From NCBI RefSeq assembly GCF_964188315.1, contig NC_135662.1, forward strand, positions 7,626,001 through 7,690,000: 64,000 nt of DNA, read 5' to 3'. The notes beneath the pieces are model-generated. The model was not told where the DNA came from and searched no databases. It saw only the letters and a program-made list of their open reading frames with translations. The position numbers were made by a program, and so were the translations under genes. Source of the stretch: Podarcis muralis (lineage: Eukaryota). Of this stretch, positions 1 to 61,329 are shown one piece after another. Position 1 is the first letter of the stretch, and each line of letters begins with the position of its first letter.

Positions 1-1665
1 TTTCTTTAAGAACTTGCCATAGTTTGCTGTGGTCGACACAGTCAAAGGCTTTTGCATAGTCAATGAAGCAGAAGTAGATGTCTTTCTGGAACTCTCTAGC
101 TTTCTCCATAATCCAGCGGATGTTTGCAATTTGGTCTCTGGTTCCTCTGCCTCTTCTAAATCCAGCTTGCACTTCTGGGAGTTCTCGATCCACATACTGC
201 TTGAGCCTTCCTTGTAGAATTTTAAGCATAACCTTGCTAGCGTGTGAAATGAGTGCAATTGTGCGGTAGTTGGAGCATTCTTTGGCACTGCCCTTCTTCG
301 GGATTGGGATGTAGACTGATCTTCTCCAATCTTCTGGCCACTGCTGAGTTTTCCAAATTTGCTGGCATATTGAGTGTAGCACCTTAACAGCATCATCTTT
401 TAAAATTTTAAATAGTTCAGCTGGAATACCATCACTTCCACTGGCCTTGTTATTTGCAGTGCTTTCTAAGGCCCATTTGACTTCACTTTCCAGGATGTCT
501 GGCTCAAGGTCAGCAACCACACTACCTGGGGTGTACGAGACATCCATATCCTTCTGGTATAATTCCTCTGTGTATTCTTGCCACCTCTTCTTGATGTCTT
601 CTGCTTCTGTTAGGTCCTTACCACTTTTGTCCTTTATTATGGTAATCTTTATACGAAATGTTCCTTTCATATCTCCAATTTTCTTGAACAGATCTCTGGT
701 TCTTCCCATTCTGTTGTTTTCCTCTATTTGTTTGCATTGCTCGTTTAAGAAGGCCTTCTTGTCTCTCCTTGCTATTCTTTGGAAATCTGCATTCAATTTC
801 CTGTATCTTTCACTATCTCCCTCGCATTTTGCTTGCCTTCTCTCCTCCGCTATTTGTAAGGCCTCGTTGGACAGCCACTTTGCTTTCTTGCATTTCCTTT
901 TCATTGGGATGGTTTTCGTTGCTGCCTCCTGTACAATGTTACGAGCCTCCATCCATAGTTCTTCAGGCACTCTGTCCACCAAATCTAAATCCTTAAACCT
1001 GTTCCTCACTTCCACTGTGTATTCATAAGGGATTTGACTTAGATTGTATCTTACTGGCCCAGTGGTTTTTCCTACTTTCTTCAGTTTAAGCTTGAATTTT
1101 GCTATAAGAAGCTGATGATCTGAGCCACAGTCAGCTCCAGGTCTTGTTTTTGCTGACTGTATAGAGCTTCTCCATCTTTGGCTGCAGAGAATATAATCAA
1201 TCTGATTTCGATGCTGCCCATCTGGTGATGTCCATGTGTAGAGTCGTCTCTTGTGTTGTTGGAAAAGAGTGTTTGTGATGACCAGCTTGTTCTCTTGGCA
1301 GAACTCTATTAGCCTTTGCCCTGCTTCGTTTTGAACTCCAAGGCCAAACTTGCCAGTTGTTCCTTTTGTCTCTTGACTCCCTACTTTAGCATTCCAATCC
1401 CCTATAATGAGAAGAACATCCTTCTTTGGTGTCACTTCTATAAGGTCTTGTAAGTCTTCATAGAATTGGTCAATTTCAGTTTCTTCAGCGCCAGTAGTTG
1501 GTGCATAAACTTGGATTACTGTGATGTTAAAAGGTCTGCCTTGGATTCGTATCGAGATCATTCTATCATTTTTGAGATTGCATCCCAGTACAGCTTTCGC
1601 CACTCTTTTGTTGACTATGAGGGCCACTCCATTTCTTTTACGGGTTTCTTGCCCACAGTAGTTTA
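1..1665 (-). mobile_element. RTE-BovB LINE, 5'-truncated; APE endonuclease plus start of RT, running off the window
   Basis: Manual minus-strand translation is open from about 1660 to base 1: YCGQETRKRNGVALIVN..IQVYAPT..IGDWNAKVG..RNQIDYILC..GSDHQLL..NYRTIALISHASKVMLKIL..FIDYAKAFDCVDH. The ORF track omits it because there is no stop codon in the window. Confidence 0.97.
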
Positions 1666-2501
1666 TATCATATACCCCCCCCCCCAAAAAAAAAACATTA
1701 ATAAGAAAACAATAAGAACATAGAGAAAAAGAGAGAAGAGGAAAAGCAGGAAATATAGAACAAGAGAGAGAGAGACAAATAAAGGAGAAACAGTCATATT
1801 TCTGATCACACCTTCCATAATCTGCATCTTCAGGAAAAACACTTAGAGCAAGAGGGAAGCTTGTCGTTACCTCAGATATGGACAGGCAAGACACACAGCC
1901 AAAATCTGTGAAACTTGAACCCAAAACTTGCGGTTCTTTTCCTCAGTTTATATTCTCTTAGAATTATAGATAACCACACAATCATGCACACAAAGCATAT
2001 AACAAAAGAGTCTGCTTTTATTACTTCGATTTTCCACAAAATTTACAGTATATACTACATGATTATAAGAAAAAACCCTCAAAGCAGTTTACAAAAAGAA
2101 TAAAGCAATAAAATTCACACACAAAACAATTTGATATGTCTATGATGCAGTAACAGAATCATAGATTTGTATAATTGGGAGGGATCTTGAGGATCATCTA
2201 ATCGAACCACCTGGTATGCAGGAATCTCAGCTAAATAATCCCTGACAGATGGCCATCCAACCTCTATTTAAAAACCTCTAAGGCAGTGTTTCCCAACCTT
2301 TTTTGGGCAAAGGCACACTTGTTTGATGAAAAAAATCTCGAGGCACACCACCATTACAGCCCCGTGACGTCAGCGCGCAGCGTCACGCCGGGAGGGACGC
2401 ACGAAAGTGTAACTTTCAATTTTTTCCCCTCCCCCTTGCCGGGGAACCTCCAAGCTTTGGGGGTGGGGGGGGAGGAGGCAGCAAAGCGAGGGACTGAGGG
2501 A

Positions 2502-3995: not shown

Positions 3996-4958
3996 TTAGC
4001 CTATTGCATTTTGACTGGGGAACTCTGGTTCCTCTCTGCTTTCTTCCTCCTCCTTTAAGATATTCTCAAGGATACTTTTAATTAACTCCCGCAAACGACG
4101 GCCCTTCTGTCTTCCTACCAGGAAATAAATCACTGGGTTAACAGTACTGTTAAGAGAGGAACATATGAATGCATATTCTAGGACGTAGGGATTTTTATAA
4201 TGCAGGGCCTGAACAGCATCCATTGGGAAAGCAAGGAGGAGGAAAAGCAGGAGAGTAATCAAGATGGCTGTTAAAAGCTTCCTCTGCTTACACTGTTGTG
4301 GTCTGAAGTAGATCTTCCAGGACAGGGTTGGGGTGGAGAAGGACATTAACAGGGTGCAAAGCAGGGCATTGACAAGAAACTGGTAGGAGCTTAGATTACA
4401 ATATTTCCCAGTTAGCACGAGTGTGATGTGAATTCCAGAAGGTAGGAAGGCAAGGATCCATATTGCGGGGCACACGATGGCGGACAGGTGTTTGTGCTTA
4501 TGTAAGTGATACCAAATGGGGGGAAAGACACACACGCACCTGTCAATGCTGATGACCGTCAGTAGAAACTGGCTAGCACTGTATGTGAATAGGAAGCCAG
4601 TGTAAAACAATGACCTTAGAAGCTCAAAATGCAAGGGATATGACTTACATACAATCCAGTTCAAATCAATAGCAACTACAGCAGTGAGTAAGCCAAAGTC
4701 AGCAATGGCGAGGTTCAGGATGTAGGTGGTGAAGTGATTCCTCTTGATGCGGAATGCCAGGAGCCAGATGACTGTCCCATTTCCCACAAATCCAAAAAGG
4801 CAGATAAGCAAAGTGAAGGTGATCATGAAAAACATTGCTAAAGAACTAGTGGCACAGCTCATTGGATCACGGTTGTTATTCGTTGGGATGCTTTGTGTTC
4901 CATTGTGTTCTTTTCCAGCATCCAGCTGGGACAGAACTGACTGGCAGAAATTTGCCAT
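3996..4958 (-). CDS. MAS-related GPCR (MRGPR/MAS1-like), R1, 320 aa
   Basis: ATG to TAA; seven hydrophobic helices; GFVGNGTVIWLL, YILNLAIADF, ISIDRC, NSTVNPVIYFLVG. Splice acceptor ttttctcctAG at 4997-4998 lies just upstream of the ATG. Confidence 0.95.
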   Translation of the reverse strand: MANFCQSVLSQLDAGKEHNGTQSIPTNNNRDPMSCATSSLAMFFMITFTLLICLFGFVGNGTVIWLLAFRIKRNHFTTYILNLAIADFGLLTAVVAIDLNWIVCKSYPLHFELLRSLFYTGFLFTYSASQFLLTVISIDRCVCVFPPIWYHLHKHKHLSAIVCPAIWILAFLPSGIHITLVLTGKYCNLSSYQFLVNALLCTLLMSFSTPTLSWKIYFRPQQCKQRKLLTAILITLLLFLLLAFPMDAVQALHYKNPYVLEYAFICSSLNSTVNPVIYFLVGRQKGRRLRELIKSILENILKEEEESREEPEFPSQNAIG

Positions 4959-5259
4959 CCTGGTCAGTTTCTGCTTTTCTGATGGAGAGAGACTTGCTAG
5001 GAGAAAAGAAACATAATTTCAAAAGTATTGAAATATTTATTATAGTATTTGCGGTGCTCATTTCCTGCATGAAGAATTCTGCAATTACCTATTAACGGTC
5101 CGGAATCCCTTTACCTTTACCTTTACACATGTCAATAATCTTGTCTCTAAAACAGTCAACTTCTGCCATAAATTATTTGCAGAGGTCAACAAATTTTTTG
5201 GACATAATCACAGCATTGTTGATATACCAGTTCTTAGATATTAATGCAGAAAGCTACTA

Positions 5260-9426: not shown

Positions 9427-10377
9427 CTATTCCCCTTTGCTGTCTCCCTCCTCCTTTAAAACATTCTCAAGTATACTCTTAATTCTCTCCCGGGAATGAT
9501 GACTCTTCTTCCTTCCTACCAGGAAATAAATCGCAGGATTAATGGTGCTGTTAAGAGAGGCACATATGAACGCATATTCCAGGAGGTAGGGATCTTTATG
9601 AAACAGGGCCAGGTACTGAACAGCATCCATTGGGATAGCAAGGAGGAGAAAGAAGAGGAGTGTAAGTAAAATGGCCATTATAAGCTTCCCCCGCTTACAC
9701 TCATGTGGTTTTAAGTAGACCTTCATGGACAGGGTTACGGTGGAGAGGGACATTAAAAGGGTGCAGAGCAGGGCAATGGCAAGAAACTGGTAGGAGCTTA
9801 GATTACAATATTCCCCAGTTAGCCAGAGCGTGATGTGAATTCCAGACGTCACAAAGGCAAGGATCCATATTGCGGTGCACACGATGACGGACAGGTGTTT
9901 GTGCTTATGGAAGCGATACCAAATGGGGAAAAAGATGCACACAAACCTGTCAATGCTGATAACCGTCAGGAGAAGCTGGCTAGCACTGTATGTGAATAGG
10001 AAGCCAGTGTAAAACAATGACCTTAGAAGCTCAAAATGCAAGTAATGTGACTTACATACAACCCAATTCAAATCAATAGCAACTACAGCAGTGAGTACGC
10101 CAAAGTCAGCAATGGCGAGGTTCAGGACGTAGGTGGTGAAGTGATTCCTCTTGATGCGGAATGCCAGGAGCCAGATGACTGTCCCATTTCCCACAAATCC
10201 AAAAAGGCAGAGAAGCAAAGTGAAGGTGATCATGAAAAACATTGCTAAAGAACTAGCGGCACAGCTGGCCCTTGGATCACAGCTGTTATTTGTTGAGGAC
10301 TCCGTGATACTTTGCATTCCATTGTGTTCTTTTCCAGCATCCATCTGGGACAGAACTGACTGGCAGAAATTTGCCAT
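9427..10377 (-). CDS. MAS-related GPCR, R2, 316 aa (close paralog of R1)
   Basis: ATG to TAG; 7TM; YVLNLAIADF, ISIDRF, NSTINPAIYFLVG. Acceptor AG at 10425-10426. Confidence 0.95.
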   Translation of the reverse strand: MANFCQSVLSQMDAGKEHNGMQSITESSTNNSCDPRASCAASSLAMFFMITFTLLLCLFGFVGNGTVIWLLAFRIKRNHFTTYVLNLAIADFGVLTAVVAIDLNWVVCKSHYLHFELLRSLFYTGFLFTYSASQLLLTVISIDRFVCIFFPIWYRFHKHKHLSVIVCTAIWILAFVTSGIHITLWLTGEYCNLSSYQFLAIALLCTLLMSLSTVTLSMKVYLKPHECKRGKLIMAILLTLLFFLLLAIPMDAVQYLALFHKDPYLLEYAFICASLNSTINPAIYFLVGRKKSHHSRERIKSILENVLKEEGDSKGE

Positions 10378-11883
10378 CCTGGTCAGTTTCTGCTTTGATA
10401 CTCCTTCTGCTGTGGAGATTCCTCCTAGAAGAAAAGAGAAGAGCTGGATTTGTTTCTTGCTTTGGGGATAAATGCATAATGATGCTGCTCAAGTTCTCAG
10501 CTGGGTCTTCTTTGATCCCCACTGTTGATCAAAGTTAAAAGCGATTTAGATTATTCCAGATCTGTGTTATTTTCAGATCAGTTCATATTCATACTACACT
10601 GCTCCAGAGAAAGTTTCTCAGGTGCAGAGCGATTGCAGAAGGAACCACAAAAAATTAAAACGATAGAAATGAAAATACAGCTCCTTTCATTTAGAGAGTA
10701 ATCCTACTCATAGGACAATTCAGGTGATGGAACTCAAAGAGTCATTTTCAATGCACCAGAAATTGTGTCCAAGCCCATCCAAATATGAAGGTGCATGCTG
10801 GACTTGCAACTTTCATGGGGTTGGAAACATACAAAGCTTTTATATTTGGAATATACCTTGTTTGTATTGTCTATACTAGGTTAAATCCATATTAAATGAG
10901 TTACAATAAGTTTCCATTGAAATCAGTGGGACTTAAGTCATGGTTTGGGTCAACTAACTTGGCTACTACTCCAATTACCTGGGAATAAACTTCTTTGAAT
11001 TCATTAGAACTTGAAGTAGTCATGGTGAGGATTGCATTGTGAGCAATTCCTTAACTCTAGCTTACTTCCAACCAACTACTTTTTGCACATACTTTTGACT
11101 AAAGCACACATTTCTGCATTTTATTTTCACTGACATCTTTATTTCATTCTACAATTTCACTTAAATATATATGTTAGTTTAAGCATTCTTTGGTTGAAAA
11201 ACTGCACCACAAAATTCAGATAAGTGTGAATTTTGAAGGACAGTTCTATTTCACTTCACTTATGGTTCCAGTAAGTGTGAATTTGACAGATTCAGCTTTA
11301 AATGCACATTGAATCAATTTCTCCCCCATTTCTAAGAATGAGGACTAAGAGGATGGGCCAAAGGCATTAGAGAAAATATTATCTTTGAATAGGAATCAAA
11401 GGAAGAGTAAATGAGAGAATGTTGGAACCACAGGAGAATTGACCATTAATAAAAGTTGTCATGCACAGAATATCCTACCTTTACAAATCACACCTGTTGG
11501 CTCACAACTGGGTATAGATGTTCCGATGTTCTCCTCCTTGATTTTCAGGACCTCAAGCCATACATTTCCTTTCTGCTTCAAAAAAGTACTTTGCCAACTA
11601 CAACATGCCCATGCACACTGAGCATACTACCTGGAGCCGGGAGGGTCAGGGATGGGCTTTATGTTCAGACAGGGTGGGGCACAATCTTCACATCATGATG
11701 AAACGTACAAGAAATCCATTTGTTGGTGCCTCAATAACCAAGGTCAGGGCTCTGCAACTTTCTGTGTGGGCAGGAAAAAAAATGCTTCTCAAATGTAAAG
11801 TCTCAAGGGAAGTTTGCACTTATCCTTGCAGGTGTTTCAAAGCATACTCCAACTCTCTAGGATGAGAATTGAGATCTTATTTA

Positions 11884-16610: not shown

Positions 16611-17165
16611 TTTTGTAAATACTTAGTGCTATGTACTGACATTCTCGCCCTGGTCCAGCAGGGGAATACTGTAGATAACCACTTCATCAGCTCTGAATCT
16701 ACCTGTACTTGTCCTCCGCTCTTCCTGTAGATAGTTTTCACTCACCCACAATACTGAGGGCTAGATGTCACCCCTGCCCCTTAATGGGGGTGAGAGTAAC
16801 AGAGAATTTGGAGGGCAGGTTTGGGCAAAGCACTAATAAATAGATTGCTAGAGCCTTGTAGTGCATTACTTTGTTAGAGTGACAGCAGGAACTGAATTGA
16901 ACCATCTCTTTTTGCATTTCAGGACTATCTATAGTGGAAGAGGAATCAATGTGCCAAAAGAAAACATCTGAGGATAATGGCCCTTCATGGATCACTGCCT
17001 TGCCGTGGCGAAGGGGCTTGAATAACTCAGAGAAGCTACGAACTATGCCCAGCAGGGCACACAAGATGAACAGATCATAGTGGAGAGATTTGACCAAACG
17101 TGATCTACCTGGAGGAGGAACCGGCAAGCCACTCCAGTATCCCAGCCAAGAAAACTCCATGGACA

Positions 17166-19061
17166 GAGCTTCCGGGTTAGCGCCATCGGCTAATGGCGGA
17201 TTCCCTCCGAGCTCCGGAGGGAATCGGCTCCGCAGGATTTGGGTCTTGCCGCTGCGGCGACGCGGGGACCCTTAAAAATCACAGGCGGTGAAGCCTGTGA
17301 ACCTGGTGACTCGGCGGGCACCATTTGCGCCCCCCCGACCTGCGAAGGAGCCTTTTTAAAGGCTTCGGAACGGGGGACGGGGTGAGCGGCGCGGTGCTGA
17401 GAGTCGACTGCTTCTCCTGCGGAGTGAAGCCGCGCTGCCATGGACGGAGAATGCTGACTTCTTCTTGTGAATAATTGGACTTTAAAACAACAACCCGTGA
17501 GTAGTACGGAAATTGGATTTGTAAAGAAATTTTTTTTTTTGAATTAGGGACGATCGGGGAAGGCGCAAACAGGAAGTCCGTCTCCCCGTCTTGTAAATAA
17601 TCTAAAGCAAGGACCTGCTAACTAAGGTCGAGATAATTTTTTCTTTTTTATTGGGTAAAAGACATTAATTTCACGATTTGGCACTATAAGAAATTTTACT
17701 GGAGGATAAGAGCTAATTTTGGGAGCTGAAGTGCCACCCCCCCGGACCCGGGAGTGATCCGCGAGAGAGCCTGTTGAAAAGGTATTGAAGAGTTTGACAG
17801 CTGTCAAATTAGCTGTTGTCTCTGCTGGTTGTATTTGTTACAATTTGATTATATTTTGTTGAAAATAAGGAAGAACTGATACAAACTAACTTGATTTTTG
17901 GATTTGAACTGGAAGGAATACTAAGTAACCAAAATCCCTCTAGAGGGGGTTTTGGGACACTACAAGAATGGCTGAAGGAGGGAAAATTCAAGCTAAATTG
18001 GACAGAGTCTTTGTTCTCTTGGGAAAGTTACAAGGCCAAATTGATGTTTTTGCTACAAATGTTGCAACTCTGGACTTAACAGTAAACAAACTTATTGAAT
18101 TTTATAAGGATTTGACTCAGGAAGTTCATGCAGCTGGACAAGAAGAGAAACTTGAGAGTTTTGAGAGTGTGGAGAAAGAGATATATGTTGTTCCTGAGGA
18201 AAAGGAAGGAGGAGCTGTAATGTTGCAGATGACAAAGGAGGGCCAGAGGCCTGACATGATGGCTACAAAGGAAAATAAGAACTTGATGGCGAAAATTTGG
18301 TCTGAATTGGAGACTGAAGAATGGAGAGATCTCCTTATGTGGAGATCTGAAGACCCAAGGATTACAAATTTGATTAAGGTGGAAGTTGGAGCTTTGCGGA
18401 CATTTGGACTTGAAAGGAGTAAGAAACAAGATTCAGGCTCCACTTTTAAGTATGGAGGTCTGGTTGGAAGAAACATGGACCCCATTGGGCTAGAGCTTCT
18501 CCGAGATTTGGTGTTTAATACCAAGGACTATCAAAAAAACCAGCAGAGAGGAATTGAGAGAGAATTAAGAGCCTCGGACGTGAGATCTCCAGGCTGATAG
18601 TAGACTAAGACTGATGGACGTTTGTTGGGGATTGAAACCGGGAAAGGGGGGGGTGGAGTTTGGGAATCCAAAGGGTGCATAATTATAACCTGTTTTTGCT
18701 TTTATTTTGTTTTGTTATTTGTATGAAAATTGGGGAATTCGTGGAAGGGAATTTAGGCCGACTTTAGAAAAAGGTTTTAAGAATAAGCACTGATGTATAA
18801 ATATTGATGTCTATAAGGCAAGATTGGTTTTTTAAAATGAACTAAACATAAAAAGGTTAAAAATTAGGGATAAGAACTTGTCGAACCAACAATTTGAACT
18901 GGAATACAAGAAGGGGAGGTGTGGGGAAGTCAGGGAAATATGTTATAGAAAAGTAAGGATTGTGAACTCTATGTGTTTTTAAACTTTTTTGTTTTTTTTC
19001 CCTTTTTTGATTTTTTAATGTATTAAAGTGGAAAATTTCAATAAATATCTTTTTTTTTTTT
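17166..19061 (+). mobile_element. Non-autonomous L1-dependent retroelement (HAL1-like) with a single ORF
   Basis: Exact 18-bp TSD AAGAAAACTCCATGGACA (17148-17165 and 19062-19079); CpG-rich 5' end (CTTCCGGG..ATGGCGG); L1-like G-rich then T-rich 3' UTR; AATAAA at 19040-19045; no endonuclease or RT coding sequence. Confidence 0.85.
17968..18597 (+). CDS. 209-aa element-encoded protein with an N-terminal coiled coil (ORF1-like, function unknown)
   Basis: Strong Kozak context (aagaATGg); intact ORF; 4-3 hydrophobic spacing I7-L11-V14-L18-L21-I25-F28-V32-L35-V39-L42-Y46-L49-V53. Confidence 0.65.
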   Translation: MAEGGKIQAKLDRVFVLLGKLQGQIDVFATNVATLDLTVNKLIEFYKDLTQEVHAAGQEEKLESFESVEKEIYVVPEEKEGGAVMLQMTKEGQRPDMMATKENKNLMAKIWSELETEEWRDLLMWRSEDPRITNLIKVEVGALRTFGLERSKKQDSGSTFKYGGLVGRNMDPIGLELLRDLVFNTKDYQKNQQRGIERELRASDVRSPG

Positions 19062-19513
19062 AAGAAAACTCCATGGACAAAGACAACAGGCATATAAAAG
19101 TTATGACACTGGAAGATGAGCCCCTCAGGTCGGAAGGCTTCAAGGAAAATGTTTCAGATCCTTCTCTAAGTGATATTTTGCTTTCCCCATATTTATGTAC
19201 CTACTTATTATATAGTTACAAAGCTTGATTCCCTTCTGCCAGGTTTCCCACTCTGTTTGTCTTCAGTTTCCTGTGTTTCTCCCCCAGCCACTGTCTCTTG
19301 CAGTAATTTTACTGTGTATCCTCCACCTTTCTGTCTCCCTGGTCCCTGAAATTCTCATCTATACACCTGCTTGCTCATGTGTGCTCCCTCTTGACTCTCT
19401 CAAGAAATGCAGCCAACTGTCTTTTAATTCCTCAGCTGTGTGCGTTGCTCACTTCTGCATGCATTGGTAGGCAAGAAGGACGCCTGCTTTCTGCTAGGCT
19501 AATCAATCCTGCT

Positions 19514-29447: not shown

Positions 29448-30419
29448 TCACAACTGTTCTTGAACTGGAAGTTCCAGTTCCTCTCTACAGACCTCTTCTT
29501 CCTTAAAAACATTTTGGAGAATGACCTTTATGCCCTCCCTACATAGATCTACCTTCTGTTTCCCAACCTGGAAATAAATCAGTGGCTTAACACTGCTGTA
29601 GATGGAGGCAGAAAATAAACGCAACTCCATGTGATGAGCATGTGGAACAGGGAAATATGTGATGTATAAGGCATTCAGAGGCAAATCAAAGAAGAGAGAG
29701 AAAAGGAGGATAAATAAGATGGCTGTCAAAAGTTTCCGTGGCTCTTGCTGCTGTGATTTCAGGTAGACTTTGTTGAAGAGGCTGAGAGCAGAGATAATCG
29801 TGACCGGGGTGCAAACCAAGACACTCACAATAAACTGGTAGTACATTTGGGGATAAAATTCAGTATGGAGAGTAAGGACAATTGCACAAATCAGGAAGGA
29901 GAAGATCCATATTACACCACACACACCAGTGGACCACTGTAGAGGGCGGTGATAATGATGCCAAGTTGGGTAATAGACTGACACACACCCGTCAATGCTG
30001 ACGGCCATCATTAGAAGCTGACTGACACTGTACATCAACAGGAAAAGCTCTAGAGCTATTGGGAAAATAACTGAAAGAACGAAGGTGCCTTCATTAAAAA
30101 ATCCTACAGCAAGAAATGTGATAAGACATACCAGGACCCCAAAGTCAGCAGCAGCCACGTTCAGGATGTAGGTGCTGAAAGGATTCTTTGCAATGCGGAA
30201 GCTAAGAAACCAAAAGACAGTTCCATTGCCCAGAAGTCCAAAAATGCAGATTAAAAAGATGAAGACAGAAAAAACAATCCTTCCTAAATTGTCGTAGAAG
30301 ATCCCCTCTGTCCTATTATCAGAGGGGTTCTTGGCTGGAATTGCAGTGGTATATATTCCGTAATAACCCAGTTCCACATCCATTGGGAACATAAGCACAT
30401 GGCTGATATTGGTTACCAT
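29448..30419 (-). CDS. MAS-related GPCR, R3, 323 aa, with atypical motifs (SIDGC, SVKPLIY)
   Basis: First ATG is at 30419 (the track start 30437 is TTG); acceptor AG at 30460-30461; 7TM; GLLGNGTVFW, YILNVAAADF; intact to TGA. Confidence 0.9.
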   Translation of the reverse strand: MVTNISHVLMFPMDVELGYYGIYTTAIPAKNPSDNRTEGIFYDNLGRIVFSVFIFLICIFGLLGNGTVFWFLSFRIAKNPFSTYILNVAAADFGVLVCLITFLAVGFFNEGTFVLSVIFPIALELFLLMYSVSQLLMMAVSIDGCVSVYYPTWHHYHRPLQWSTGVCGVIWIFSFLICAIVLTLHTEFYPQMYYQFIVSVLVCTPVTIISALSLFNKVYLKSQQQEPRKLLTAILFILLFSLFFDLPLNALYITYFPVPHAHHMELRLFSASIYSSVKPLIYFQVGKQKVDLCREGIKVILQNVFKEEEVCREELELPVQEQL

Positions 30420-31009
30420 GTTCAATATCTGCTTCAATTGTTTTCCCCAAGTACTGGTTCTAAGGTAAAAGAAGAGAGAGAATTATTAATTTCCTGGCAT
30501 GGTGCTTAATAAGCAATGATGTGGCTAAAATGTCCAGGCTGGTATAAGTGACCTCATGCACTGAGACCATCTGAAAAATGCATTATTAATGCATTTTACT
30601 TAAGATGAAATGTTTGATTGTGTGTGTTTTTAGCCCTATATGCTCACTGCATTTCCTTCCCCCTCCAACCATGCTGCAGAGAGCAGGAGTTGTTCAATGT
30701 TGCCTTGCCCGAACATACCCTATGAAGGACAAGCTAGAAAAGCATTTCCCTATACCCAGCAGTGCTGCGCTGCTTGAAAGAGGGCTTTCAAAAGGCCCTA
30801 TACTGCATTTTGGCTGTGTGTGCCTGTTCGCAGCAAGGGAACACATTTGCATAGTCAAACTGAGGAACATTGAACATTCTGCTCACCACTTGCAATCTCA
30901 GTATTTTTGTTTGTTCCTTAGAATCGCTGAGCAGCACTGGGTGCCTTTGGGGGTCATCAGTTCAGTGCTTACTTTAGAGGTGGAGTGTGCAGATTTTTCA
31001 TTTCTCTTC

Positions 31010-36621: not shown

Positions 36622-37587
36622 TTATGTAAGGATCATAAGCGGATTTGAAATGGGACGGTCCATTTCCTGTCCGTTGTCTTCCTCCACATTCAAAGCCCTC
36701 TGGAGAATGACCTGCAGGCTCTCCTTGGATCGACCTCGCTTCTTCCTCCCAACCAGAAAATAGATCAAGGGGTTAGCACTGCTGTTTAAGGTGGCACACA
36801 GAAAGGCATAATGGTGTAGATCAGGAATGTCAAAAGCTAGAAAATGATTAAGGGCAATAAGGGCGTCAAGTGGAAAAGCAAGCATGAGGAAGAAGAGAAG
36901 AGTAAGTAAAATAACCATTAAAAGCCTTCCCCTCTTTCGCTGGCGTGATTTAAAGCAGACTTTGATGAATAAGATCACCGTTGAAATTGTCATCAGTGTG
37001 AGGCAAAGCAGGGCAGACAAGAGTAATTGGAAGCTTGCTGTGAAGTAATAGCTAAATATGCTAAATAACTGGAGTATGTAGAGAATTATGGTGAACAGAA
37101 AGCAGAGGACCCATATGAGGGAACACACAGTGGTGGACAGATGTGTCGGCCGGTGGCACCGATGCCAAATAGGGAAGAGGACAGACACACATCTGTCAAT
37201 GCTGATGGCTGTCAGGAGAAGTAGATCAGTGTTGTACGTGAACATTAAGAGATGAAGAGTTATTAAAGAAGCATCTTTGCCTAGACGAGTCAAAGCAATA
37301 CAATGATATATCTCTACAGTCATGAGGAAGGCAAAGTCAGCAACAGCCAAGTTCAGGATGTAGGTGGTGAACTGGTTCTTCTTAGTGCAGAAGCTAAGAA
37401 GCCAGATGGTGGTTCCATTTCCCAAAAATCCAGCACAACAGATAACCAAACTGAACATATAGAAAATAGCTTCTTTCAATGGATTATACCAGTCATTTTC
37501 TTGGCCAGTATATGAGCTATTATCATGCTCAGAACCTGTCCAAGCCTCCATATCGGAACTGGAAGTCCAGCTGCTATTTACCATCAT
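36622..37587 (-). CDS. MAS-related GPCR, R4, 321 aa
   Basis: First ATG is at 37587 (the track start 37593 is GTG); acceptor AG at 37642-37643; AGFLGNG, YILNLAVADF, ISIDRC, NSSANPLIYFLVG. Confidence 0.95.
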   Translation of the reverse strand: MMVNSSWTSSSDMEAWTGSEHDNSSYTGQENDWYNPLKEAIFYMFSLVICCAGFLGNGTTIWLLSFCTKKNQFTTYILNLAVADFAFLMTVEIYHCIALTRLGKDASLITLHLLMFTYNTDLLLLTAISIDRCVSVLFPIWHRCHRPTHLSTTVCSLIWVLCFLFTIILYILQLFSIFSYYFTASFQLLLSALLCLTLMTISTVILFIKVCFKSRQRKRGRLLMVILLTLLFFLMLAFPLDALIALNHFLAFDIPDLHHYAFLCATLNSSANPLIYFLVGRKKRGRSKESLQVILQRALNVEEDNGQEMDRPISNPLMILT

Positions 37588-38327
37588 GCTCACTTGCTCC
37601 TTGTGGGATCCTTATCTCTTCTTCTAGAGTATGAGTGACGGCTAAGAGAAATAAAATGTTACAGAGAACATTTCAAGTGGAAAAGTTCAAGTGGAATTCC
37701 ATACATGACCCAGAATGATGTGTTCTTCTCAGTTTGGCTTTGCTCAGAGACTTGAGGGCGGTGCTATTGCAAAGGAATCAGAAAAGGTCATTGTAGTCCA
37801 TGCTGTCTTACTTCGATCAAAATCCACTCCCGCCAGTAGATACTCTAGCACATCCCTTTCAATATCCTTCCAGAATAGATGCTGTATAGGGGCATTTCCC
37901 TCCAATAACCTATAAGAATAAGATTGGTGGAACATTTTGATTGCCAATGGACACAATGACCCATCACCAGTCCTCTGGGAGACAAATGTCAAAGTAGGTA
38001 TGGCTGAACCCAACCAATTCATTTCCATTTGCCTCAATAAATATAGCACCGTCTCCTTACAAGGTATTCATTATTTATTCCCCCTTTATTCATGTCCACC
38101 CCTTTTGAGATACCATATTGATTTCCACCCCATCCACCCACATCTGCTTTCCCCCTTTCTCTTCCACCCATATGAGAAGGTCTGAAGCTCATAGAGAACA
38201 TGTCTGCTTTGTATTCAGAAGGTACAAAAACTGACCCTCAGCATTTCCAGGTAGATATGGGAATGTCCTCCATGAACCATTGAGATTCACTACCAGCCAG
38301 GGAAGATAATAACAGTTATTCCGTACC

Positions 38328-40295: not shown

Positions 40296-41264
40296 TTATG
40301 AAAGGTTCCTCAGTGGGTTCGAACAAGGAGGGTCCATTTCCTGTCTGCCATTCTCCTCCTCATTCAAAACCCGCTGGAGGATGGCCAGAAGACTCTCCCT
40401 AGACTGACCTCCCTTCCTCCTCCCAACCAGAAAATAGAGGAAGGGGTTCACGCAGCTGTTGAGGGAGGCACACAAAATGGCATAATGGAATAGACCAGAA
40501 ATATTCAAGCCCACAAAGGATAAAACAAGAAGAAGGGCATTGAGGGGGAAAGCAAGCATGAGGAAAAAGAGGAGTGTAAGTAAAATAACCGTTAAAAGCC
40601 TTCCCCGCTTTCGTGGGTGTGATTTAAAACAGACTTTGACGAAAAGGATCACAGTTGAAATTGTCATCAGTGGGAGGCAAAGCAGTCCAGTCAAGATATA
40701 TTGGCCTGTTTCTGATAACCAATATGGAAAGGTGTAATAGTTTTCAAGAATGTAGAGCATTACCCAGAGCAGACAGGAGAGGACCCATATGAGGGCACAC
40801 ACAGTGGTGGACAAATGGGTCGGCCGGACACACCGATGCCAAATAGGGAAGAGGACAGACAAACATCTGTCAATGCTGATGGCTGTCAGAAGAAGTTGGC
40901 CAGTGTTGTATGTGAAGGATAAGAGACAAAAAGCAATACTATGAAGAACATAATAAGGAAACGGAGTAAAAGAATAGATCTCTAAGCTCAGGAGGAATGC
41001 AAAGTCAGCAACAGCCAAATTAAGGATGTAGGTGGTGAACGGTTTCCTCCTAATGTGGAAAACAAGAAGCCAGATGACAGTTCCATTCCCCAAAAATCCC
41101 ACACAGCAGGTAACTAAAATGAAGACATTTAGTATAAATATTTTAAATGGGTAATAAGGGGAATCTCCTTGGTCATTAGATGAGCTATTGTAAGTGTCAT
41201 TATACTCTTTATATGTCACAGCAACCGCAGCAGATTGCAAAGTCCCATTCGTATTTATTTCCAT
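40296..41264 (-). CDS. MAS-related GPCR, R5, 322 aa
   Basis: Intact 7TM ORF; the paralogous first ATG is ACG here, so the second ATG is used; acceptor AG at 41319-41320. Confidence 0.95.
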   Translation of the reverse strand: MEINTNGTLQSAAVAVTYKEYNDTYNSSSNDQGDSPYYPFKIFILNVFILVTCCVGFLGNGTVIWLLVFHIRRKPFTTYILNLAVADFAFLLSLEIYSFTPFPYYVLHSIAFCLLSFTYNTGQLLLTAISIDRCLSVLFPIWHRCVRPTHLSTTVCALIWVLSCLLWVMLYILENYYTFPYWLSETGQYILTGLLCLPLMTISTVILFVKVCFKSHPRKRGRLLTVILLTLLFFLMLAFPLNALLLVLSFVGLNISGLFHYAILCASLNSCVNPFLYFLVGRRKGGQSRESLLAILQRVLNEEENGRQEMDPPCSNPLRNLS

Positions 41265-41802
41265 GTTGAATGACGGCGTGTGGAATCCTTGTCACCTCTT
41301 CTGGAGCATAAGTTTCCTCTAGGAAAATATCACAAAGATGTTTGACTCAGCTGGAATTCTGTGCAAAACTCAGAATTGTGAGAGCGAAGAGCCCATTGAA
41401 CAACATATAAACCCACCTCATCTGTCTATCAAGTCAAAAGTCATATATGTGCAGTTCTCTGCAATATAACTGAATCCCCCACATAGGCCACACCCCTCTG
41501 GATTTTTTCTCATTGAGGTTTTTTTGGACTTTAGTGAGTTAGTTTACCTGGAAACTTGGTTTGATTAGTGACAAGAGAAGAAGTCAGTACAGCATTTCCT
41601 GGTCTTCTGGCATTATTGTCTGATACGTAATGTCTCTCCAAAATTGAGGTTCAGTCATATTTCTTTTGCTATGGCCAAGCTCATCATTCCTGCTTAGGAA
41701 GAGATATCAGTAAGGATGAAGGAGATGGACTGAGACAGAATGAGAAGGATGCCACCTTGTTTAGCGAAGATTGATATAAAGTTTTATAGCAGTGAATTTT
41801 AT

Positions 41803-45019: not shown

Positions 45020-46003
45020 TTATGAAAGTTTCCCAAGTGGGTTTGAACAAGGAGGGTCCATTTCCTGTCTGTCATTCTCCTCCTCATTCAAAACCCGCTG
45101 GAGGATGGCCAGAAGACTCTCCCTAGACTGACCTCCCTTCTTCCTCCCAACCAGAAAATAGAGAAAGGGGTTCACGCAGCTGTTGAGGGAGGCACACAAA
45201 ATGGCATACTGGAATAGACCAGAAATATTCAAGCCCACGAAGGATAAAGCAAGAAGAAGGGCATTGAGTGGGAAAGCAAGCACGAGGAAAAAGAGGAGTG
45301 TAAGTAAAATAACCGTTAAAAGCCTTCCCCGCTTTCGTGGGTGTGATTTAAAACAGACTTTGATGAAAAGGATCACAGTTGAAATTGTCATAAGTGGGAG
45401 GCAAAGCAGTCCAGTCAAGACATATTGGCCTGTTTCTGATAACCAATATGGAAAGGTGTAATATTTTTCAAAAATGTAGAGCATTACGCCGAGCAGACAG
45501 GAGAGGACCCATATGAGGGCACACACAGTGGTGGACAAATGTGTCGGCCGGACACACCGATGCCAAATAGGGAAGAGGACAGACACACATCTGTCAATGC
45601 TGATGGCTGTCAGAAGAAGTTGGCCAGTGTTGTATGTGAAGGATAAGAGACATTCATCAATACTATTAAGAACATCATCAGGAAACCAAATAAAGGTATG
45701 GAACTGTAGGCTCAGGAGGAATGCAAAGTCAGTAACAGCCAAATTAAGGATGTAGGTGGTGAACGGTTTCCTCCTAATGCGGAAACCAAGAAGCCAGATG
45801 ACAGTTCCATTCCCCAAAAATCCCACACAGCAGATAACTAAAACGAAGCAATATATTATAGATAATTCATATTGCTTATATTGCGAATCTTCTTGGTCAT
45901 TAGATGAGCTATTATAAGTGTCATTATACTCTTTATATGTCACAGAAACGGCAGCAGATTGCAAAGTCCCATTGATATGTCTCTCCACGCTGAATGACTG
46001 CAT
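45020..46003 (-). CDS. MAS-related GPCR, R6, 327 aa
   Basis: Intact 7TM ORF, ATG to TAA; acceptor AG at 46043-46044. Confidence 0.96.
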   Translation of the reverse strand: MQSFSVERHINGTLQSAAVSVTYKEYNDTYNSSSNDQEDSQYKQYELSIIYCFVLVICCVGFLGNGTVIWLLGFRIRRKPFTTYILNLAVTDFAFLLSLQFHTFIWFPDDVLNSIDECLLSFTYNTGQLLLTAISIDRCVSVLFPIWHRCVRPTHLSTTVCALIWVLSCLLGVMLYIFEKYYTFPYWLSETGQYVLTGLLCLPLMTISTVILFIKVCFKSHPRKRGRLLTVILLTLLFFLVLAFPLNALLLALSFVGLNISGLFQYAILCASLNSCVNPFLYFLVGRKKGGQSRESLLAILQRVLNEEENDRQEMDPPCSNPLGKLS

Positions 46004-46531
46004 GTGAAAATCTTGCCTCCTCTTCTGGAGCAGAAGTTTCCTCTAGGAAATGGAAAATATCACAAAGATGTCTGACTCAGCTGGAATTCTGTGCAAAACC
46101 CAGAATTGTGGGATCCAGGAACCCACTGAACAACACATAAACCTACAACATCTGTCTATCAAGCCAAAAGTCATATACGTGCAGTTCTTTGCAATATAAC
46201 TGAATCCCCCACATGGGCCACACCCCTCTGGATTTTTTCTCATTGAGCTTTTTTTTGGACTTTAGTGAGTTAGTTTACCTGGTAACTGGTTTTATTGGTG
46301 TGAAGAGAAGAAGTCAGTACAGCATTCCCAGGTCTTCTGGCACTACTGATATGTAATGTATCTCCAAAATTGGGGTTCAGTCATATTTCCTTTGCTATGG
46401 CCAAGCTCATCATTCCTGCTTAGGAAGAGATATCAGTAAGGATGAAGGAGATGGACAGACAGAATGAGAAAGATGCCACCTTGTTTAGGGAAAGATTGAT
46501 ATAAAGTTTTATAGCAGTGAATTTCACTTAC

Positions 46532-52019: not shown

Positions 52020-53021
52020 TTACGAAAGGTTCCTAAGTGGGATCGAACAAGGAGGGTCCATTTCTTGTCTGTCATTCTCCTCCTCATTCAAAACCCGCTG
52101 GAGGATGACCAGTAGACCCTCCCTAGATTGACCACCCTTCCTCCTCCCAACCAAAAAATAAAGCAAGGGGTTCACACTGCTGTTGAGGGAGGCACACAAA
52201 TAGGCATAATGGAATGGAACGGGAATTTTCAGGCGTAAAATTAATCCAAAGAAAAGAATGACATTGAGTGGAAAAGCAAACATGAGGAAGAAGAGGAGTG
52301 TAAGTAAAATAACTATTAAAAGCCTTCCCTGCTTTCGTGGGTGTGATTTAAAACAGACTTTGATGAAAAGGATCACAGTTGAAATTGTCATGAGTGGGAG
52401 GCAAAGCAGTCCAGTCAAGAGAAATTGAATATATATTGTGAGGATACAATGATAGATGTTATCTGGTATAAGGGGAAATATTTCTCTGATAATGTAGAGG
52501 ACTATGGAGAGCAGAAAGGAGAGGACCCATATGAGGGCACACACAGTGGTGGACAAATGGGTCGGCCGGACACACCGATGCCAAATTGGGAAGAGGACAG
52601 ACACACATCTGTCAATGCTGATGGCTGTCAGAAGAAGTTGCCCAGTGTTGTATGTGAAAGATAAGAGACAAAAAGCAATACTATCAAGAAAATAATCAGG
52701 AAACCTAATAAAAGCACAGAACTGTAGGCTCAGGAGGAATGCAAAGTCAGCAACCGCCAAATTAAGGATGTAGGTGGTGAATGGTTTCCTTCTAATGCGG
52801 AAACCAAGAAGCCAGATCACAGTTCCATTCCCCAAAAATCCCACACAGCAGATAACTAAAATGAAGACATTTATTATAGATTCTTCATATTCCTCATATT
52901 GGAAATTTCCTTGGTCATTATATGAGCTATTATAAGTGTCATTATACTATTTATATGTCACAGAAACGGCAGCAGATTGCAAAGTCCCATTGATATGTGT
53001 CTCCATGCTGAATGACGGCAT
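52020..53021 (-). pseudogene. MAS-related GPCR R7: full-length 333-codon frame with a premature TAG at codon 25
   Basis: ATG at 53021, MPSFSMETHINGTLQSAAVSVTYK*YNDT; TAG at 52947-52949 where R5, R6 and R8 have GAG. The rest of the frame is open. The track start 52844 is a GTG in TM1. Confidence 0.9.
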
Positions 53022-59793: not shown

Positions 59794-60795
59794 TTACGAA
59801 AGGTTCCGAAGTGGGATCGAACAAGGAGGGTTCATTTCCTGTCTGTCATTCTCCTCTTCATTCAAAACCCGCTGGAGGATGACCAGTAGGCTCTCCCTAG
59901 ATTGACCTCCCTTCTTCCTCCCAACCAGAAAATAAAGCAACGGGTTCACACTGCTGTTGAGGGAGGCACACAAAAAGCCATAACGGACTGGAATGGGAAT
60001 TTTCAGGAGTAAAATTAATCTACAGAAAAGAATGGCATTGAGTGGGAAAGCAAGCATGAGGAAGAAGAGGAGTGTAAGTAAAATAACTATTAAAAGCCTT
60101 CCCCGCTTTTGCGGGTGGGATTTAAAACAGACTTTGATGAAAAGAATCACAGTTGAAATTGTCATGAGTGGGAGGCAAAGCAGTCCAGTCAAGAAAAATT
60201 GAAAATATGCTGTGACGATATAAAGACCGATGTTATATGATATAAAGGGAAATGTTTCTGAGAGAATGGAGAGGATTATGGAGAGAAGACAGGAGAGGAC
60301 CCATATGAGGGCACACACAGTGGTGGACAAATGGGTTGGCCGGACACACCGATGCCAAATAGGGAAGAGGACAGACACACATCTGTCAATGCTGATGGCT
60401 GTCAGAAGAAGTTGGCCAGTGTTGTATGTGAAGGATAAGAGACCAAAAGCAATACTATAAAGAAGATAATCAGGAAGCCTAATAAAAGTACGGAACTGTA
60501 GGCTCAGGAGGAATGCAAAGTCAGCAACAGCCAAATTAAGGATGTAGGTGGTGAACGGTTTCCTCCTAATGCGGAAACCAAGAAGCCAGATGACTGTTCC
60601 ATTCCCCAAAAATCCCACACAGCAGATAACTAAAATGAAGACATTTATTATAGTTTCTTCATATTGCTCATATTGGAAATCTTCTTGGTCATTATATGAG
60701 CTATTATAAGTTTCGTTGTACTCCTTATATGTCACAGCAACCGCAGCAGATTGCAAAGTCCCATTGATTTGTCTTTCCATGCTGAATGACTGCAT
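59794..60795 (-). CDS. MAS-related GPCR, R8, 333 aa
   Basis: Intact 7TM ORF, ATG to TAA; acceptor AG at 60835-60836. Confidence 0.96.
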   Translation of the reverse strand: MQSFSMERQINGTLQSAAVAVTYKEYNETYNSSYNDQEDFQYEQYEETIINVFILVICCVGFLGNGTVIWLLGFRIRRKPFTTYILNLAVADFAFLLSLQFRTFIRLPDYLLYSIAFGLLSFTYNTGQLLLTAISIDRCVSVLFPIWHRCVRPTHLSTTVCALIWVLSCLLSIILSILSETFPFISYNIGLYIVTAYFQFFLTGLLCLPLMTISTVILFIKVCFKSHPQKRGRLLIVILLTLLFFLMLAFPLNAILFCRLILLLKIPIPVRYGFLCASLNSSVNPLLYFLVGRKKGGQSRESLLVILQRVLNEEENDRQEMNPPCSIPLRNLS

Positions 60796-61329
60796 GTGGA
60801 AATGTTGTCTCCTCTTCTAGAACAGAAGTTTCTTCTAGGGAATGGAAAAGATCACAAAGATGTTTGACTCAGCTGGAACTCTGTGCAAAACCCAGAATTG
60901 TGAGAGCCAGGAACCCACTGAACCCACAAATTTTGTCTATCAAGCCAAAAATCATATATGTGCAATTCTTTGCCATCTAACTGAATCCCCCACATGGGCC
61001 ACACCCCTCTGGATTTTTTCTCATTGAGGGGTTGTTGTTTTTTTGGACTTTAGTGAGTTAGTTTACCTTGAAACTGGGTTTGATTGGTGCCAAGAGAAGA
61101 AATCAGTACAGCATTGCCTCGTCATCTGGCATTTACTGTCTGATATATAATGTCTCTCCAAAATTGGGGTTCAATCATTTTTCTTTTGCCATGGCCAAGC
61201 TCATCATTCTTGGCTTAGGAAAGAGACATCAGTAAGAATGAAGGAGATGGGCTGAGACAGAATGAGAAAGATGCCACCTTGTTTAGGGAAAGATTGCTAT
61301 AAAGTTTTATAGCAGTGAATTTCACTTAC

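Follow-up and report, generated by a model that had tools for sequence, protein, structure and literature searches.

Non-autonomous L1 derivatives that retain only ORF1 have been described in mammals under the name HAL1, for half-L1 (Smit 1999; Bao and Jurka 2010, both as cited in PMC5753468 and PMC5786205). A passage of PMC5753468 defines HAL1 as a non-autonomous derivative of L1 encoding only ORF1p and attributes several independent origins to these elements, and a figure legend of PMC7586669 draws the HAL1b ORF1p with CC, RRM and CTD. Two other bipartite non-autonomous LINEs with an ORF1, HeT-A from the Jockey clade and Ag-Sponge from the CR1 clade, are presented in a passage of PMC5786205, where multimerization with the protein of the helper is the role proposed for the HAL1 and HeT-A proteins. 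Why ORF1-only elements keep their gene, and how any RNA overcomes the cis preference of L1, are open questions in the field. Here we analyzed a 64-kb stretch of Podarcis muralis DNA (the window) carrying an insertion with a single ORF, which we interpret as a half-L1 of lizard origin.

Structure of the insertion

Direct reading of the window located a full-length family copy of 1.9 kb at 17166-19061 (+ strand, as are all features of the insertion and its site). It is bounded by an exact 18-bp target-site duplication (TSD), AAGAAAACTCCATGGACA, at 17148-17165 on the 5' side and at 19062-19079 on the 3' side. The insertion splits the 5' fragment of an RTE/BovB-type LINE (16981-19138, i.e. 16981-17165 plus 19080-19138), which we take to be BovB, and the empty site rebuilt around it was 93-95% identical to RTE copies in loci L004-L009.

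The L1-derived 5' head (17166-17610) is a CpG island and is presumed to serve as an internal Pol II promoter. Its leader (17166-17450) has a GC content of 65% and a CpG observed/expected ratio of 1.02, compared to 0.32 for the window. A 32-codon upstream ORF (17193-17291) starts at the head motif AATGGCGG. The remainder of the 5' UTR (17611-17967) carries a weak collinear trace of the region preceding ORF1 in a lizard L1 lineage that we call L1-B (z about 1.4-1.9, which alone is not significant). The 5' UTR, 802 nt in total, is followed by an ORF of 209 aa (17968-18597), hereafter mini-ORF1; none of 20,000 base shuffles of this ORF was free of stops (mean, 15.7 stops). Downstream lie an L1-derived 3' UTR (18722-19024), which is 72% identical to the 3' UTR of L1-B and begins at about the position of the ORF2 stop, and a terminal segment (19040-19061) composed of an AATAAA signal (19040-19045) and a T12 run (19050-19061). 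The open-frame listing of 17166-19061 contained no frame of EN/RT size, and ORF2 is absent. This is in good agreement with the first-pass annotation, which had described a complete insertion with an exact 18-bp TSD, a CpG-rich 5' leader, a 5' UTR of 800 nt with a single intact ORF, an L1-like 3' UTR and no endonuclease or RT.

Elsewhere in the window, eight single-exon GPCR-like ORFs, by their look presumably Mas-related receptors, form a tandem cluster on the - strand (3999-5018, 9430-10488, 29451-30482, 36625-37611, 40299-41291, 45023-46042, 52023-52946 and 59797-60816). A 647-codon LINE frame with an endonuclease domain, which we take to be of RTE/BovB type, runs off the window edge at 2-1942 (- strand).

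Copies in the genome and marks of retrotransposition

A genome-wide copy search, proposed in the first-pass annotation, revealed a multi-copy family. Searching the own genome with the DNA sequence gave 4764 candidates, and all 40 that were scored matched at 87-100%, mostly over the full length; the protein search gave 1516 candidates, with matches at 69-100% for 150/150 scored. These copy numbers are lower bounds, and the family comprises at least 150 ORF-bearing copies. The copies have both ends in common, and their flanks are unrelated. A TSD of 9-20 bp (median, 17 bp) abutted the 5' end in 31 of the 42 full-length copies with both ends located, compared to 7 of 1892 mismatched flank pairs analyzed as a control. 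The base preceding the TSD was a pyrimidine in 28/31 cases and the first two TSD bases were mostly A, i.e. the targets are biased toward Y/AA. Furthermore, 5' truncation was found at 20 of the 29 loci recovered by their 3' end. Target-specific insertion of the Tx1 type and specificity for BovB were both considered and rejected, as the flanks of the other copies are unrelated and there is no fixed target sequence.

A T-run of 0-12 followed by an A-run of at least 5 was present in 24/36 parsable tails, and autonomous copies of a second lizard L1 lineage, L1-A, likewise finish in AATAAA..T(n)A(n). The earlier description of an AATAAA followed by a T-run rather than poly(A) is thus accurate for the copy at 17166-19061 but does not extend to the family: the absence of poly(A) is a local feature of this copy.

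The first-pass annotation had weighed its reading against a one-off internally deleted L1 or a processed pseudogene of a host gene, and a single ORF with UTRs, a polyadenylation signal and a TSD does fit the form of a retrocopy. However, the copies, at least 150 in number, are dispersed and agree in their ends but not in their TSDs, and the ORF and both ends trace to L1 (see below). A high-copy family of this kind leaves the one-off or pseudogene origin with practically no probability. The claim of an RT-less, L1-related family still keeping a coding gene is, on the contrary, supported by the copies, the L1 ends and the homology to ORF1p.

Of the 150 copies scored in the protein search, 28 (hand count) lie on contig C20, as do many L1 matches. 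With 30.4 Mb, this contig makes up 2% of the genome, and it looks like a repeat-accumulating, possibly W, chromosome. At L058, a more divergent family member lies in tandem directly behind a 3'-truncated copy, and L061, located inside an L1-B ORF2, has an internal duplication with two intact mini-ORFs.

A search of sequencing runs for the element listed no RNA run among those on record. Four RNA runs were aligned at 88% identity, which yielded 850-1023 reads per run including reads of the host repeat, 12-24 of them at 99% or more. The reads span the element, with a strand bias in two runs. Since 85 and 79 reads carry one and the same upstream loose end, most of the RNA assigned to the family has the appearance of read-through into other copies. 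Read joints of the "skips 1914" kind were considered as an empty allele and set aside; they are most simply reads of other BovB copies.

Relationship to lizard L1 lineages

Twenty intact L1s of other families, recovered by an RT search, matched neither the ORF nor the head among the matches listed, and what they share with the element within these matches is limited to its GGACTTCCGG start and one short 3' motif. On this ground the ORF was at first read as unrelated to ORF1, a reading that was dropped once L1-B had been found. An L1 fragment flanking copy L061 scored 151 against the last 300 nt of the element (shuffles, 35.6 ± 4.9), and following this fragment led to two lizard L1 lineages. 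L1-A (L211-L220) is young and intact, with copies 97-99.5% alike and an ORF2 of 1250 aa, and it represents a candidate helper in the own genome; it has the first ~330 nt in common with the element at about 75% (75.5% for the 5' head in the window). L1-B is older and mostly decayed, four of the 20 copies fetched being full length (L221, L225, L234 and L238). The 5' ~440 nt of the element are 72-75% identical to these four copies, and part of its 3' UTR is present in all 20 (~72%). An older relative of the element, L261, is nearer to L1-B (80% over 474 nt), and in the old copy L262 no more than a trace of the 3' end of ORF2 is left. The comparison of the ends with autonomous L1s, which had also been proposed earlier, thus gave matches of both the 5' head and the 3' UTR to L1-B and L1-A. 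Taken together, these sequence comparisons indicate that the element family arose by internal deletion from the L1-B lineage.

Origin and domain losses of the mini-ORF1 protein

No Pfam family was matched above cut-off by the 209-aa ORF and 12 relatives, except for an env domain in the chimeric protein P0012. Similarly, a word-indexed search of 5.8 billion proteins gave no match among 229 candidates (lengths 114-366 only), and a search of the own genome with PF02994 gave none among 24. The ORF1p of lizard L1s (L131-L150 and L211-L240) is recognized by no Pfam L1 ORF1 model either, despite its human-ORF1p-like fold, and the silence of Pfam on mini-ORF1 is therefore uninformative. When 1.84 billion representatives were searched with a profile, 12 of them matched, namely 11 unnamed proteins (129-215 aa) and one chimeric gene model, and the only named relatives of the mini-protein are Podarcis gene models. 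P0012 (XP_077778988.1), with its cluster, is a Podarcis gene model of env-like type that matches mini-ORF1 over its final ~60 residues; it is probably a chimera, the predicted gene extending into a copy of the element.

Direct comparison with lizard ORF1p was informative. An HMM of the family matched all four L1-B ORF1p at 18-27 bits, while 200/200 block shuffles of each scored lower (maximum, 8-14) and reversed sequences reached up to 8; L1-A ORF1p scored 3-5 bits, and 12/12 ORF1p of other families scored below 0. Aligning the mini-ORF1 family with L1-B ORF1p by hhalign gave 93.2% (E 3e-7) over 177 collinear columns. L1-B ORF1p is itself a true ORF1p, as it matches human ORF1p 2ykp both by profile (E 4e-9) and, through its model, by Foldseek (E 1.6e-10). 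By this remote homology, the product of the ORF is a collinear, eroded remnant of L1-B ORF1p and not a normal ORF1p, which is a correction to the first-pass annotation.

Mapped on the L1-B ORF1p model, the mini-protein keeps a shortened coiled coil, beta1-alpha1-beta2 of the RRM, two scraps of the CTD and part of the tail. Missing are about 48 residues at the N-terminus, ~41 residues corresponding to RRM beta3-alpha2-beta4 and the first CTD helix, ~17 further CTD residues and the distal tail, and the mini-protein does not contain the complete RRM and CTD of a canonical CC-RRM-CTD protein. Two blocks are conserved: a helical N-terminal block (aa 1-25, 17968-18042), which corresponds to the start of the ORF1p coiled coil, and a C-terminal block (aa 185-209, 18520-18597), which ends in RASDVRSPG-stop and corresponds, by sequence comparison, to the last CTD helix plus tail of L1-B ORF1p. 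The AlphaFold model of the mini-protein has low confidence (pLDDT 39.7), with no folded domain predicted, and when aa 1-110 of mini-ORF1 were modeled in a complex with a pair of L1-B coiled coils, the score was 0.39 (control, 0.47), which speaks neither for nor against an interaction.

According to a passage of PMC5381506, RRM and CTD show the highest conservation within L1 ORF1p across vertebrates. Since this core is partly deleted, a normal RNA-chaperone function is unlikely, and from its sequence the mini-protein probably cannot act as an RNA chaperone. This bears on the mode proposed for canonical HAL1, in which a self-sufficient ORF1p would trimerize, bind its own RNA via a remodeled basic region and need only the ORF2p of a helper. 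Collinear homology through all three ORF1p regions and a frame length near 190-225 aa in every family seen speak for such a mode. We nevertheless find it improbable: besides the deletions in the RRM and CTD, sister families (see below) have lost a further 25-33 residues, including RRM beta1-alpha1, and the RRM-derived region evolves neutrally here, whereas it is conserved in L1 ORF1p (same passage of PMC5381506).

Sister families

When the query was the most distant relative, which is 29% identical to mini-ORF1, 151 matches in distinct identity tiers were obtained from 954 candidates, and a second relative gave 152 matches from 1876 candidates, largely overlapping the original protein search. 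The sister families keep their frame open in the same genome, and their representatives are 1.8-2.1 kb long, share the L1 head and are flanked by TSDs of 12-20 bp. One of them has eleven copies that are 95.1-99.8% alike, among the copies listed. The earlier description of the element as young thus applies better to the sister families, with pairs up to 99.8%, than to the present copy, for which the closest relatives among the available sequences reach 93% (full length) to 95.5% (3' part) identity.

The frame finishes in x-x-P-G-stop in 41 of the 44 sister-family loci fetched, with R at -4 in 39, the search pattern itself having required such a P-G end; the stop that follows is TAG in 20 loci, TAA in 11 and TGA in 10. 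A resemblance of DVRNPG to 2A/StopGo was considered and discarded. Indeed, the 2A consensus is one residue longer and has a final proline, and the motif descends from the tail of the parent.

When 3' UTRs were scored (L244 and L269-L283), seven of ten representatives of the sister clade scored higher with the L1-A tail than with both L1-B tails, compared to 0/13 nearer to the young L1-A tail in the main and old families. Judged from these alignment scores, a replacement of the tail that tracks the active helper is possible in the sister clade.

Selection on the reading frame

Among 30 copies picked by DNA alone, four segmental duplicates included, 21 had the full 209 codons and nine were broken. 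The net length change of the ORF was a multiple of 3 in 56/63 copies (37 or so of them picked by protein match), compared to 13/57 in the 5' UTR and 16/57 in the 3' UTR. Within the family (55 intact of 70 copies, 11 broken copies, three duplicates and one with a late stop having been dropped), the pairwise dN/dS of distant pairs was 0.75 (0.58-0.97; this interval and that of the whole ORF between families are too narrow, as the pairs are not independent and the bootstrap was over codons only), compared to 0.87-1.12 in the five other frames. By region, the two ends gave 0.54 and 0.52, and the parts between them 0.84-1.22. Between families, pairwise comparison of 23 of the 25 representatives (two had no recognized start) gave 0.88 (0.77-1.00) for the whole ORF. 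The value was 0.58 in the N-terminal block (aa 1-25), 0.38 in the C-terminal block (aa 185-209) and 0.95-1.29 in the other parts, with 1.29 at aa 26-50 and an uncertain alignment of the ORF middle. The internal branches total 2.2 substitutions per site (22 sequences), for which neutrality predicts about 60 stops; copies for the dN/dS, internal-branch and stop-codon counts were picked for protein match or intactness. The dN/dS analysis among copies that had been proposed earlier thus gave values below 1 at both ends and about 1 in the middle, with the frame kept. We conclude that the two ends of the ORF, of about 25 residues each, are the only parts under purifying selection and that the middle is about neutral. 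In addition, the GCC-TCG codons of the C-terminal block are nearly invariant, and part of the C-terminal constraint may act on the RNA.

Could the ORF be a neutral relic, kept open by ancestry, young age and the choice of intact copies, in an element that moves like a SINE-type bipartite L1 fragment? A whole-ORF dN/dS of 0.75-0.88, the nine broken copies and the picking of representatives for intact frames are compatible with this. However, about 60 stops would be expected on the internal branches, in-frame indels are found inside the ORF only, the stop codon changes in identity while keeping its position, and more than two-thirds (21/30) of the copies picked by DNA alone are full length. The neutral relic is therefore largely refuted and retains very little probability, and we are confident that selection acts on a translated product.

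Proposed mechanism

We regard the identity of the element and its dependence on L1 as very likely, and the same applies to its presumed transcription from the L1 head and its copying by the ORF2p of L1-A or L1-B. Mobilization in trans by L1 ORF2p is suggested by the shared ends, the Y/AA-biased targets and the intact L1-A; since the closest parent, L1-B, is mostly decayed, the present helper is a putative one. The best explanation overall, with a probability of roughly 0.6, is that of an L1-derived half-L1 copied in trans by the ORF2p of a related L1, with the mini-protein as an adaptor.

According to this model, transcription would start from the L1-derived head, and the RNA of the element would be reverse-transcribed in trans by a related L1-A or L1-B ORF2p. 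The conserved N-terminal helix of the mini-protein would join the coiled coils of helper ORF1p, the middle would be a free linker that need only stay in frame, and the C-terminal basic helix with the R-x-P-G end would contact RNA or the helper, or set protein turnover. We tentatively propose, at slightly less than even odds, that the mini-protein is such a two-ended adaptor, by which its RNA would be hitched to L1 particles of the helper. A linker that is neutral and yet in frame is most easily understood if both ends must sit on one chain, which favors an adaptor, as does the multimerization with helper protein proposed for HAL1 and HeT-A (PMC5786205). Against it, constraint on the coiled coil does not extend beyond its first 25 residues, with aa 26-50 at 1.29, which is thin for a stable trimer, and the model of the mini-protein is of low confidence.

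Alternatively, translation itself may be selected. With an open frame, the RNA would stay occupied by ribosomes and its 3' UTR would remain short, with a gain in RNA stability and in access to nascent helper ORF2p, and the peptide would be useless, being destroyed via a C-terminal degron (-PG, RxxG) or slowing termination. The middle 160 codons, at dN/dS about 1 and with many in-frame indels, argue for this possibility, as does the recurrent end of the sister-family frames (R-x-P-G in 39 of the 41 loci with x-x-P-G-stop, under a pattern that required such an end). Furthermore, the RSP of the parent is internal, and the terminal G-stop thus arose with the truncation and was then fixed. C-degron motifs include -PG for KLHDC10 and Rx[2-4]Gx[0-3] for APPBP2 (a passage of PMC7458402), although the degron here is a motif match only, to human data. 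Selection on translation leaves unexplained both the conserved N-terminal heptad block (dN/dS 0.58) and the KDYQ..R helix, likewise conserved, which lies upstream of the final four residues. We consider it the main rival, although less likely than the adaptor.

To return to the adaptor, a bolder version of it would be a radiation of L1 parasites in which all that is left of ORF1 is a pair of short functional peptides joined by a neutral linker whose frame has to be kept, with the N-terminal helix slipping into helper ORF1p assemblies and the R-x-P-G end acting as a degron or a termination brake. This is speculative and, in our view, somewhat unlikely. If true, a retrotransposon protein would have been kept as a short-lived cis-acting hitch and not as an RNA chaperone, and the element would be a natural minimal probe of the RNA capture of L1 ORF2p in trans. 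The deletion of the RNA-binding core, with the frame and two 25-residue ends kept across many families, points to the minimal parts that matter, and L1-A offers a living helper of the same genome with which these can be tested directly.

Comparison with known systems

With the lizard lineages L1-B and L1-A the element has in common the 5' head (72-80%), the 3' UTR (about 70-75%), the GGACTTCCGG start, the AATAAA-T(n)-A(n) end and a collinear ORF1. Unlike the element, from which about 4.2 kb with ORF2 are missing, they carry ORF2 as well as a full ORF1p of 336-382 aa with the human-ORF1p fold. HeT-A and Ag-Sponge are similar in having one ORF1-type protein thought to multimerize with the protein of the helper (a passage of PMC5786205), but they belong to other LINE clades and hosts, and they are likened here by description, not by sequence.

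The described system that is most similar in design is HAL1, with its single ORF1 product, L1 ends, TSDs and A tails. In the lizard family we found 5' and 3' ends derived from L1, no ORF2, the marks of TPRT (variable TSD, A tail and 5' truncation), a product that is homologous to L1 ORF1p by remote homology, and purifying selection on the ORF, for the frame and both ends only. However, the lizard element differs from HAL1 in its host, its descent from L1-B and its size of 1.8-2.1 kb. Its protein lacks half of the RRM and much of the CTD, whereas that of HAL1b has CC, RRM and CTD; selection acts at the two ends only; and it has radiated into many coexisting families, some of them very young. 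The origin would be independent of mammalian HAL1, since the parent is a lizard L1. In the literature searched we found no report of a lizard HAL1, and the earlier suggestion of a possibly undescribed family stands against this literature only. The main texts of PMC5381506 and PMC5872511 contain neither "HAL" nor "non-autonomous"; the consensus set in the supplement of PMC5381506, as well as Repbase and Dfam, may hold related entries.

Such elements form a class that is missed by gene and repeat annotation, as they have no Pfam match and leak into gene models, and the failure of Pfam to recognize lizard L1 ORF1p constitutes an annotation blind spot. The parent lineage, the domain-level deletion map, the radiation within one genome and the end-only pattern of selection are new here. 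Overall, the element represents a variant of the HAL1 design, which fits the definition by homology, falls short of a complete ORF1p and is not a member of the mammalian families, and it extends HAL1-type parasites to squamates.
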